Below, piece after piece: positions 14,071-16,794 of a DNA stretch of 64,000 bases (position 1 is its first letter; every line of letters begins with the position of its first letter). The DNA lies in contig DATJXC010000008.1 of NCBI GenBank assembly GCA_035500495.1, positions 19,150 through 83,149 on the forward strand. The letters are read 5' to 3'. Below the pieces are notes generated by a model that was not told the origin of the DNA, did no database searches, and saw only the letters and a program-made list of their open reading frames with translations. Made by a program: the position numbers and the translations under genes. The stretch is from Gemmatimonadales bacterium. GTDB taxonomy: Bacteria > Gemmatimonadota > Gemmatimonadetes > Gemmatimonadales > GWC2-71-9.

Positions 14071-14644
14071 AGATCTCCCGGTCGGGATCGAACTGGGCAA
14101 ACCGGCCGCGGGCCTGCTGCGTCGTGAGCCACGTTTCCAGATCCGAAGGCACGAGCCCGTTGGAGCGCTCCTGCCGCTCGGCCGCCCGCGTCGCCAGAAG
14201 ATCGGCGTACTCGTTCTTCGCCGAATCGGCATGTCCGCGTACCCATTCCCAGCGGACCTCGTGGGCCAGGGCCGCCTGATCGAGCTTCTGCCACAGCTCG
14301 AGGTTCTCGATCGGCCCGCTCTTGCGCCGCCACCCGCGCGCCTTCCACGCCGGCATCCATTCATTCATCCCCTTCACCAGGTACTCCGAGTCGGAAACGT
14401 AGAAGATCTGGGCGTGCTGCCACTGCCGGCGAATCCACTCGAGCGCGGCGATGGCGCCCGCGAGCGCCATGCGATTGTTGGTGGTGGCGGGGGAGCAGTC
14501 GAAGAAGTCGAACCGGGCGACGCTGTCGCCGGCGCGGAACTCGATGAGCGCGCCGTTGCCGCCCGGACTCGGCACGTCGCTGCGGTTGCCGAGGCAGCTC
14601 TCGTCCGCGTGGACCAGCACCGGGGTCGGAGGTCGCGCGGTCAC
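14057..14644 (-). CDS. rnhA: Ribonuclease HI
   Basis: RNase H fold motifs (VHADESCLGN, TNNRMALAGAIAAL, YVSDSEYLV, VRGHADSAKNEYAD), followed by a C-terminal extension. Confidence 0.88.
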   Translation of the reverse strand: MTARPPTPVLVHADESCLGNRSDVPSPGGNGALIEFRAGDSVARFDFFDCSPATTNNRMALAGAIAALEWIRRQWQHAQIFYVSDSEYLVKGMNEWMPAWKARGWRRKSGPIENLELWQKLDQAALAHEVRWEWVRGHADSAKNEYADLLATRAAERQERSNGLVPSDLETWLTTQQARGRFAQFDPDREIYDRL

Positions 14645-15396
14645 GGCTGGATCACCACCGGAATGACGGTCTGAGTCAAGATCTCTTCCGCGTGAGAGGC
14701 GAGTCGCGGCGCTCCCAGACGGCTGCGAGGCACGTGGGCTCCTGCGAAGAGGGCGTCGGCCCGGGCCTCACGAACCACCCGGGCGACCACGTCGGCGGGC
14801 TCGCCCGCCTCGACATGGGACACGAACGATACTCCGAGAAGCGACAGGGCGGCTTCGGCTCCGCCCAGGATCGCCACCCCCGCCGCCCGATCGGCGTTGG
14901 CGTGAATGACATGAACCGTGCTGCCGACCACACTCGCGAAGCGCCCGGCGAGCTGCAGGGCGCGGGTGTTGCGGCCGTCCCAGGCCACCGCGCAGCTTCG
15001 CATCGGCGTGGGCACGGGACCGCAGACGATCACCGGGCGTCGCGCGAGCCGCACGACCGAAGCCGCCACCTTTCCGAGCACCCCGGCGCCAGGCCGGGTC
15101 GCCGAGCCATGGCGTCCGATCAAGGTCGCATCCACGTCGCCCGCCAGTTCGGCGAGCGTCGCGTCGGGCGCGCCATGGCGGACCAGGCTTTCGCCCTTGA
15201 GCCCGCCCGCCTCCACCCGAAAGGCGCCCCGGGCCGCGAGCTGCTCCGCCTCCCCGCTACCCTCTCCCGCCTCCCGTGCCGCCACGCACGCCACCAGGAT
15301 CGTCGACCGGAACCGCCGCCCCAGGATCACCGCCTGTTCGAGTGCCGCATCCGCCTGGGGGCTTTCGTCGAGCCCGACCAGCAGCCGGGTGAACAT
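14641..15396 (-). CDS. Universal stress protein (tandem Usp domains)
   Basis: 251-aa ORF with two Usp-like halves (LLVGLDESPQADAAL..., RRPVIVCGP, VIPVVIQP). Confidence 0.75.
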   Translation of the reverse strand: MFTRLLVGLDESPQADAALEQAVILGRRFRSTILVACVAAREAGEGSGEAEQLAARGAFRVEAGGLKGESLVRHGAPDATLAELAGDVDATLIGRHGSATRPGAGVLGKVAASVVRLARRPVIVCGPVPTPMRSCAVAWDGRNTRALQLAGRFASVVGSTVHVIHANADRAAGVAILGGAEAALSLLGVSFVSHVEAGEPADVVARVVREARADALFAGAHVPRSRLGAPRLASHAEEILTQTVIPVVIQP

Positions 15397-15401
15397 GGCC
15401 G

Positions 15402-15638
15402 CTAGGGCAGCACGGCGAAGGATTCCAGCTCCCGCAGCCGGAAGGTCAGCACCTCACCGGTCATCGGTAGCCTCGCGTGCAGCCGCTCGTCGGGGTCGCT
15501 CGTATCCAGACGCACGGCGACCACGACGTATTCGTTGCCCCGGCGCATCAGGGCGACCCGGCGTTGCTCCCGGACCGCCGTTTCCAGCGCGTCCAGCGCC
15601 TCGGGGGTGAGCGCGCGGAATTCCCGGATCGGGTTCAT
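15402..15638 (-). CDS. Hypothetical small protein (78 aa)
   Basis: ORF with GC3 bias, tightly packed between selD (4-nt gap) and the Usp gene (5-nt gap). No recognisable motif. Confidence 0.5.
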   Translation of the reverse strand: MNPIREFRALTPEALDALETAVREQRRVALMRRGNEYVVVAVRLDTSDPDERLHARLPMTGEVLTFRLRELESFAVLP

Positions 15639-15642
15639 CGCC

Positions 15643-16683
15643 TCACCGGACCACGATCGTGCCGGGTTCGCCCGCGACGACGCGCCCGATCACCGCCGCA
15701 ACCGGCGTTCGCTCCCGTTGTAACGCCTTGACGAGCGAGTCCGCGCGACTCTCCGGCACGGCGAGGAGGAGTCCGCCGGACGTTTGGGCATCGGCCAACA
15801 ATACCCGGATCTCGGGCGGGACGTGCTCCGTGAAGCGGACGGTTCCGGTCAGCGCCTCCAGATTGCGCGATGTGCCACCCGGGACGCTCCCCTTGGCGGC
15901 CAGCTCCCCGGCCCGTGGAAACAGCGGCACGTCGGCCGCGATGATTTCCGCCGCCGCGCCACTGGCTCGGAGCAGGCTGTGGAGATGGCCGAGCAGGCCG
16001 AACCCGGTGACGTCGGTAGCCGCATCGACGCCGGTCGCCACCGCGGCGCGAGCGGCCCCGGCGTTGAGCGTCGCCATCACCGCGACGACCGGGGCCAGCG
16101 ACGCGGCGTCGAGCAGGTCGCGTTTCAGGGCGGTCGTCAAGATCCCCGTGCCGATCGGCTTGGTGAGCACCAGCACGTCCCCTGGACGAGCCCCGGCGTT
16201 GGTCACGATGCGGTCGGGATGCACCTCGCCGATCGCGACCATCCCGTATTTCGGCTCCGGATCGTCCACCGAATGCCCGCCCAGCAGGAAGGCCCCCGCC
16301 TCCCGCGCCACATCCGCCCCTCCGCGGAGCACCTCGCCCAGGAGATCGAGCGGCAGTTTTTCTCGAGGCCAGGCGACCAGGTTCAAGGCGAAGAGCGGGG
16401 TCCCTCCCATCGCGTAAACGTCGGAGAACGCGTTCGCGGCCGCGATCCGGCCGAAGTCGTAGGCGTCGTCCACGATGGGCGTGAAAAAGTCCACGGTCGC
16501 CACGATCGCCCGTTCCGGCGCCACCTGAAACACGGCGGCATCATCGCGGCTCGATGCGTCGACCAGGATCCGGGGATCCGTCGCGTGCGGCACGTGACGC
16601 AGGACCTGCGTCAACTCGGCTGGCCCGAGCTTACAGGCTCAGCCGGCGCCGTGCGAGAAGGCCGTGAGGCGATAGGCGGTCAT
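15643..16683 (-). CDS. selD: Selenide, water dikinase SelD, with in-frame UGA (selenocysteine) at codon 15
   Basis: Track ORF 15643..16614 lacks the catalytic N-terminus. Extending upstream in frame gives ATG 16683 and MTAYRLTAFSHGAG-U-ACKLGPAELTQVLRHV, with TGA at 16641..16639. This aligns with the conserved SelD motif SHGAGCGCK, where Cys or Sec occupies this position. Confidence 0.9.
16603..16641 (-). other. UGA-Sec codon plus candidate bacterial SECIS hairpin
   Basis: The mRNA just 3' of the UGA can fold. Lower stem: GCCUGU (16638-16633) pairs with GCAGGU (16609-16604). Upper stem: 7 bp, AGCUCGG (16631-16625) with CCGAGUU (16619-16613). Apical loop: GCCAG. Confidence 0.5.
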
Positions 16684-16700
16684 GGTGTGCGAAATATGGC

Positions 16701-16794
16701 GCAAACGGACAAACAGCAAAGAGCAAAGAGCAATTAACTAGAGAACAACGATCCAGCCTCTTGACCTTCGCTCCTTGCTCTTTGCTCCTTGGCT
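16701..16794. repeat. Inverted tandem-heptamer element: (AGCAAAG-like)5 + spacer + (YTTGCTC-like)4
   Basis: Left arm is gcaaacg gacaaac agcaaag agcaaag agcaatt (16701-16735). Right arm is ttcgctc cttgctc tttgctc cttggct (16767-16794). The element fills the gap between the stop of gene 16797..17120 and the selD start. Confidence 0.8.

Follow-up and report, generated by a model that had tools for sequence, protein, structure and literature searches.

Among the prokaryotic selenoprotein families, the selenophosphate synthetases (SelD) that contain selenocysteine (Sec) rank as the second most widespread (PMC13188914, PMC4561486). The described Sec-SelD/SPS-Sec proteins, including those of Haemophilus influenzae, Deltaproteobacteria and Clostridia, share with the selD locus of the soil-type Gemmatimonadales bacterium considered here the protein family, the column in which the UGA codon occurs and a SECIS element located within the coding sequence, 3' of the UGA. 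Misannotation by gene callers and repeated replacement of Sec by Cys are likewise common to both. The locus differs from the known Sec-SelDs in its host, which belongs to an uncultured Gemmatimonadales lineage, and Gemmatimonadetes are not named in the main text of the selenium utilisation surveys and reviews that were searched for them. The finding thus adds a Sec-SelD in Gemmatimonadales to a well-known type of recoding, for which misannotation is well documented.

The consensus for bacterial SECIS (bSECIS) elements, as modelled in bSECISearch (Zhang and Gladyshev 2005, quoted in PMC13188914), requires a stem of 4-16 bp that carries a loop of 3-9 nt, with a G among the first two loop nucleotides (usually as G[G/U]); the apical loop is separated from the UGA by 16-37 nt, and the MFE is <= -7.5 kcal/mol. 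Two arrangements of the SelD elements are described in Supplement S6 of Mariotti et al. 2015; in Proteobacteria stem2 is enclosed by stem1, while in Clostridiales stem2 follows stem1 and conforms to the model by itself. In the worked example of BSepDB for a SelD of the Synergistota, the canonical SECIS is placed on the first hairpin.

The selD reading frame and its catalytic column

In a plain list of the open reading frames of the window (the whole 64,000-nucleotide stretch of DNA that was analysed), selD appears on the minus strand at 15643..16614, as a 323-aa protein with a TTG start. A previous reading of the letters and open reading frames of this DNA (the sequence-only reading) held that this TTG is internal and that the catalytic N-terminus is lost when translation is begun there. 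This proved correct, as the frame upstream of the TTG is open to an ATG at 16683 and reads MTAYRLTAFSHGAG-TGA-ACKLGPAELTQVL. The following features can be distinguished:

15643..16683, minus strand: full selD coding sequence, 346 aa when translated with TGA as U, with Sec as residue 15
15645-15643, minus strand: TGA stop codon that ends the 346-aa frame
16641..16639, minus strand: Sec codon (codon 15), an in-frame TGA that occupies the catalytic site in GAG-U-ACK
16642..16683, minus strand: N-terminal extension MTAYRLTAFSHGAG, missed if the internal TTG is taken as the start
16612..16614, minus strand: internal TTG, the Leu codon of ...AEL..., mistaken for a start by plain ORF calling

With U written as C, the extended SelD aligned to the TIGR00476 profile with 391.4 bits (cut-off 125; residues 5-313 on profile positions 1-310) and to NF002098 with 385.5 bits (cut-off 299), the latter alignment also beginning at profile position 1, while the AIRS (PF00586) and AIRS_C (PF02769) domains were matched with 93 and 80 bits, respectively. 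The TIGR00476 alignment from profile position 1 requires the N-terminal extension. Thus the fourteen N-terminal residues belong to SelD and the TGA lies inside the Gly-rich catalytic loop. This loop, in which the catalytic Sec or Cys is followed by a Lys (GxG-U/C-xCK), is represented by SHGAG-U-ACK at residues 10-18 and aligns with GAGCACK of the Cys forms. The motif SHGAG(C/U)GCK, against which the UGA had been placed in the sequence-only reading, has the Sec/Cys at this position but differs in what follows, the actual motif being GAG-U-ACK and not G-U-GCK.

The majority of 61 related genomes were found to contain selD, mostly with a single internal TGA and less often with none. The internal TGA is always located on the same GAG(U/C)ACK column, where the forms without an internal stop have TGC or TGT. 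Eighty loci from other phyla (Chloroflexota, Actinomycetota, Marinimicrobia, Deltaproteobacteria and others) were added, and the f2-family relatives L063-L071 were left out of the alignment. Over all related and distant selD loci the catalytic column is TGA in 83 and TGC or TGT in 28. The presence of the TGA in one and the same column of 83 loci of many phyla, and of Cys there in a further 28, exceeds chance and places the UGA at the catalytic Sec/Cys position of SelD, as had been claimed. Furthermore, the (I/V)RLTxxSHGAG sequence upstream of the TGA is kept at the protein level in relatives from several phyla.

The output of the plain ORF list corresponds to an alternative in which the TGA is a true stop codon, following a separate peptide of 14 residues, and SelD starts at the TTG at 16614 without its catalytic loop. 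This is extremely improbable, as a SelD without the Gly-rich Sec/Cys-Lys loop would be without catalytic residues, while the fourteen upstream codons are protein-conserved across phyla and aligned to the SelD profile from its first position, the TGA column is occupied by Cys in 28 homologues, and the full Sec machinery is encoded in the genome (see below).

In a maximum-likelihood tree of 27 SelD sequences of Gemmatimonadales, the Cys forms are nested in the Sec forms, with three state changes, for which repeated replacement of Sec by Cys is the simplest reading. At least three apparent Sec-to-Cys replacements in SelD were observed within this order, in the loci L022, L034, L035-L040, L042, L052 and L054.

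Selenocysteine machinery and other selenoproteins of the genome

The host genome is a 3.36-Mb MAG of 139 contigs, with a G+C content of 68% and a completeness of 98.7%. The sequence-only reading implied that this organism has the machinery for Sec decoding and named the absence of selA, selB or tRNA-Sec from a complete genome as evidence against recoding. A search of the genome was positive for all three, each scoring above curated or gathering cut-offs:

C64:17407-18726: selA, 549 bits
C51:23318-25171: selB, 311 bits (338 including a C-terminal piece)
C15:3018-3111: tRNA-Sec, 80 bits in Rfam (gathering score 47)

The tRNA-Sec was delineated by ARAGORN as a 94-nt molecule with the anticodon TCA (UCA), an acceptor stem of 8 bp, a T stem of 5 bp and a long variable arm. 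It sits on another contig than selD, and ARAGORN detected no tRNA over the 64-kb window. The selU gene, encoding 2-selenouridine synthase, was looked for in the whole genome and not found, so that SelD apparently serves Sec synthesis only. A second ARAGORN call, a 77-nt 'tRNA-SeC' with the anticodon TCA (C137:27378-27454, minus strand), was considered as a UGA suppressor. It has a mismatched cloverleaf with no canonical T-loop and is unmatched by the Rfam tRNA-Sec model, and is probably a false positive.

The fragmentation of the MAG into 139 contigs and this second TCA call might be taken to suggest that the TGA in selD is a sequencing or assembly error, a lesion in a pseudogene, or a codon read by a suppressor tRNA that does not carry Sec. 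There is very little to recommend such explanations, given that the identical TGA occurs in dozens of independent assemblies and that the C137 candidate has a poor cloverleaf and is not matched by the Rfam tRNA-Sec model. The selD gene of this Gemmatimonadales bacterium almost certainly codes for a Sec-containing selenophosphate synthetase, in which the UGA is decoded via SelB and a SECIS within the coding sequence; insertion of Sec at this codon would be expected from the gene, its catalytic column and the presence of the machinery.

The genome was scanned for TGAs that lie in frame between two flanks of coding-like GC3. Among the 87 candidates, only selD and a gene for a Prx-like protein were credible, and nothing was gained from a relaxed redox-motif scan, in which the 215 matches were mostly wrong-frame noise. 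Since the genome scan is not exhaustive, the count of two selenoproteins should be read as a minimum. The second gene lies outside the window:

C109:69084-69653, plus strand: Prx-like AhpC/TSA selenoprotein gene (locus L152), with its TGA at 69315

The encoded protein reads ...VVIAFFYQARTRG-U-TIQMNAY..., behind an N-terminus that resembles a signal peptide, and matches PF00578 (AhpC/TSA) with 87 bits over a region that spans the TGA. As in the known bacterial Prx-like (AhpC/TSA) selenoproteins, Sec takes the place of the peroxidatic Cys (FFYQARTRG-U-T) and the PF00578 match extends across the TGA. The C109 gene is distinguished from these by the signal-peptide-like N-terminus and by the form of its SECIS hairpin, CGCGUAC-CGUGAUCA-GUACGCG, which has a stem of 7 bp, an 8-nt loop and a G-U at +26/27. 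This hairpin is identical at the nucleotide level in 20 loci, including the rare codons CGU and GAU. The TGA of the Prx-like gene is retained in 33/35 related genomes, some of which encode a Cys-form SelD, suggesting that the Sec machinery is still in use in the latter.

The sequence-only reading had anticipated further genes with in-frame UGA codons, such as fdhA and grdB. While the Prx-like gene agrees with the general expectation, no Sec-type molybdopterin enzyme was found. A search of the genome with PF00384 for a Sec-type FdhA gave six matches (five open frames), and an internal stop was present in none of them, which argues against a Sec-type FdhA in this genome. FdhA is the commonest bacterial selenoprotein, and a detectable selenoproteome made up of SelD and a Prx-like protein alone is thus unusual.

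Hairpins downstream of the UGA and the probable SECIS core

For the description of the folds 3' of the UGA, the U of this codon is numbered as nt 1, so that nt n corresponds to window position 16642-n. Three structures are relevant:

16613..16631, minus strand (nt +11..+29): upper stem-loop of hairpin 1, 7 bp (11-17 with 23-29) and the loop GCCAG, -10.4 kcal/mol alone
16604..16638, minus strand (nt +4..+38): nested hairpin, with the lower stem formed by nt 4-9 with 33-38, -18.8 kcal/mol, hairpin 2 not included
16596..16612, minus strand (nt +30..+46): hairpin 2, 7 bp of GACGCAG/CUGCGUC (30-36 with 40-46) and the loop G37-U38-C39, -10.7 kcal/mol

The nested hairpin is that of the sequence-only reading and can be drawn exactly as described there, with a lower stem of 6 bp, an upper stem of 7 bp and the loop GCCAG. 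In the window sequence it is less stable than a tandem fold, as the MFE structure consists of the upper stem of hairpin 1 followed by hairpin 2 (-21.1 kcal/mol for the pair; -23.5 kcal/mol overall). Nucleotides 33-38 are used in both the nested and the tandem fold, and the two are therefore mutually exclusive. The helices were compared over a gapless alignment of 80 distinct Sec-type sequences, against 28 Cys forms:

Hairpin 1, lower stem: paired cells 88.8% in Sec forms and 64.9% in Cys forms, two-sided changes in 2/6 pairs
Hairpin 1, upper stem: paired cells 83.8% in Sec forms and 75.5% in Cys forms, two-sided changes in 4/7 pairs
Hairpin 2: paired cells 93.8% in Sec forms and 52.6% in Cys forms, two-sided changes in 6/7 pairs

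The changes in hairpin 2 include those from GCGCAG/CUGCGC to GCUCAG/CUGAGU, GCCCAG/CUGGGC and GCGGAG/CUCCGC, and some of them are non-synonymous. Hairpin 2 is complete in 60/80 Sec forms versus 0/28 Cys forms, with mean free energies of -9.7 and -3.4 kcal/mol, respectively (Mann-Whitney p = 2.5e-11, uncorrected for phylogeny, which overstates independence as the sequences are related). Among the 80 Sec forms, position 37 is a G in 77 and position 38 a U in all 80, although this invariance is partly a constraint on the protein since a Val codon begins with G37-U38. In the Cys forms, too, the upper stem of hairpin 1 is for the most part kept, and its conservation may thus result in large part from the K-L-G..E-L codons.

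When compared with the published bSECIS rules, hairpin 2 agrees with all four, with a 3-nt loop that starts with G-U, a stem of 7 bp, -10.7 kcal/mol and a distance of 33 nt (nt +4..+36). Its loop is GUC, or GGUCC with the G36-C40 pair open. The apical stem-loop of hairpin 1, on the other hand, deviates in its spacing, with 14 nt (nt +4..+17) between UGA and loop, a value that lies below 16-37 and reaches 17 only when the count is begun at the U of the UGA. A G is present in its loop in the window (GCCAG), while the loop is CCC or CCCCG, with no G, in many close relatives. The G-U of hairpin 2 is found at +37/38, versus +26/27 in the Prx-like gene of the same genome and +23/24 in the SECIS of E. 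coli fdhF, and the spacing of hairpin 2 thus comes close to the longest that is accepted (16-37 nt). Hairpin 2 departs from the bSECISearch model in this spacing near the upper limit, in the presence of a second conserved hairpin in the spacer and in the competition of the nested fold for nt +33..+38. Searches with Rfam 15, SECIS families included, gave no match in the whole window at gathering scores, nor in 16540-16700 at E <= 10; bacterial SECIS elements are too diverse for one model, and a match in Rfam is not a defining feature.

In the arrangement of its stems, the locus resembles the Clostridiales type of SelD bSECIS (Supplement S6 of Mariotti et al. 2015), with two stem-loops 3' of the UGA, of which the downstream one, stem2, conforms to the bSECIS model by itself. 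The Gemmatimonadales sequence differs from this type in that it can also fold in the nested arrangement of the Proteobacteria type.

The conservation, covariation and fit to the bSECIS rules of hairpin 2 make it the better candidate for the SECIS core bound by SelB, and it probably plays this role. Its distant position and the first-hairpin example in BSepDB count against it, so that some weight must be given to a Sec-SelD whose functional SECIS is the nested two-part hairpin, or the apical stem-loop of nt +11..+29, instead of hairpin 2. Most genus-level relatives have the nested hairpin as their unconstrained MFE fold, nested SelD elements are known from Proteobacteria, and the Synergistota SelD element in BSepDB corresponds to the equivalent first hairpin. 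Similarly, four pairs of the upper stem of hairpin 1 show two-sided changes (for example, AGCUCGG/CCGAGCU versus AGAUCCG/CGGAUCU), the synonymous sites C6 and C15 hardly vary among the Sec forms, and the centre of the hairpin 1 loop, at approximately nt 20, is near that of the Prx-like gene and of E. coli fdhF. However, the almost equal retention of the upper stem in Cys forms, for which the coding of KLG..EL may account in large part, the short distance of 14 nt between UGA and loop relative to the consensus, and the lower stability of the nested fold in the window make this second assignment a distinctly less likely one. The small remaining share falls to a contribution by both hairpins. The hairpin of the sequence-only reading thus exists, but the adjacent hairpin 2 is better supported as the SelB-binding core.

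Two further observations concern these folds. Hairpin 2 decays after each of the Sec-to-Cys replacements, as in L022, for example, where the sequence is GACCGAAGUGCUGCGCC. Among the genus-level relatives L019-L033, nt +40..+42 mostly form the rare Leu codon UUG (CUG in the window), and in the MFE folds of these sequences the U of UUG pairs with the A of the UGA, by which the nested stem is extended over the stop codon.

Proposed model of decoding, annotation and genomic neighbourhood

In the proposed mechanism, translation would initiate at the ATG at 16683 and the UGA at codon 15 would be decoded by Sec-tRNA(Sec), delivered by SelB that is recruited by a SECIS located in the coding region directly after the UGA. 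With the UGA in the A site of the ribosome, nt +4..+9 would be within the mRNA channel, and the lower stem of the nested hairpin would thus not persist. Its melting would release nt +33..+38 and allow hairpin 2 to be completed, with the conserved G-U loop on the covarying 7-bp stem the most likely point of contact for SelB. The complex of SelB, GTP and Sec-tRNA(Sec) on this hairpin would then insert Sec, after which the enzyme would be finished to residue 346. The predicted product is a 346-aa enzyme with Sec in its N-terminal Gly-rich catalytic loop (SHGAG-U-ACK).

A more speculative extension of this scheme, which we consider rather doubtful, is that the SelD of many phyla contains a conserved two-hairpin SECIS module, in which hairpin 1 (nt +11..+29) serves as a foldable spacer and the nested fold sequesters the binding site. 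Hairpin 1 would bring the SelB-binding hairpin 2, with its G-U at +37/38, to the entrance of the ribosome, while the nested fold would hide the hairpin 2 site until nt +4..+9 are melted by the ribosome. If true, such a module would explain how a single SelB serves both selD and the Prx-like gene, in which the G-U sits 11 nt nearer to the UGA.

The importance of the locus lies mainly in annotation, and the current understanding of Sec decoding is unchanged. The selD gene is to be annotated as encoding a 346-aa selenoprotein and not a 323-aa protein without the catalytic loop, a correction that extends to most Gemmatimonadales MAGs, as well as to the Prx-like gene. The lineage keeps the whole Sec machinery for an apparent selenoproteome of two members, SelD and a putatively secreted peroxiredoxin-like protein, with neither a Sec-type formate dehydrogenase nor the selenouridine trait. 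Furthermore, the mixture of Sec and Cys forms of SelD in one genus, where the SECIS visibly decays once Sec has been replaced by Cys, provides a clean natural data set on the features of the hairpins that are under selection.

Two genes follow selD in the window:

15402-15638, minus strand: ORF of 78 aa without a Pfam match, starting 4 nt past the selD stop
14641-15396: tandem universal-stress-protein (USP) gene, located after the 78-aa ORF

These two genes and selD may belong to one transcript. On its upstream side, selD is preceded by an ORF for a small membrane protein and by an amidohydrolase gene, and no sigma-70-like site was detected in a promoter scan of the upstream region. Between the stop codon of the membrane-protein ORF and the selD ATG (16700-16785) lies a long hairpin (-43.7 kcal/mol, z = -4.5), which is built of inverted arrays of heptamers, AGCAAAG-like on one side and CTTTGCT-like on the other.
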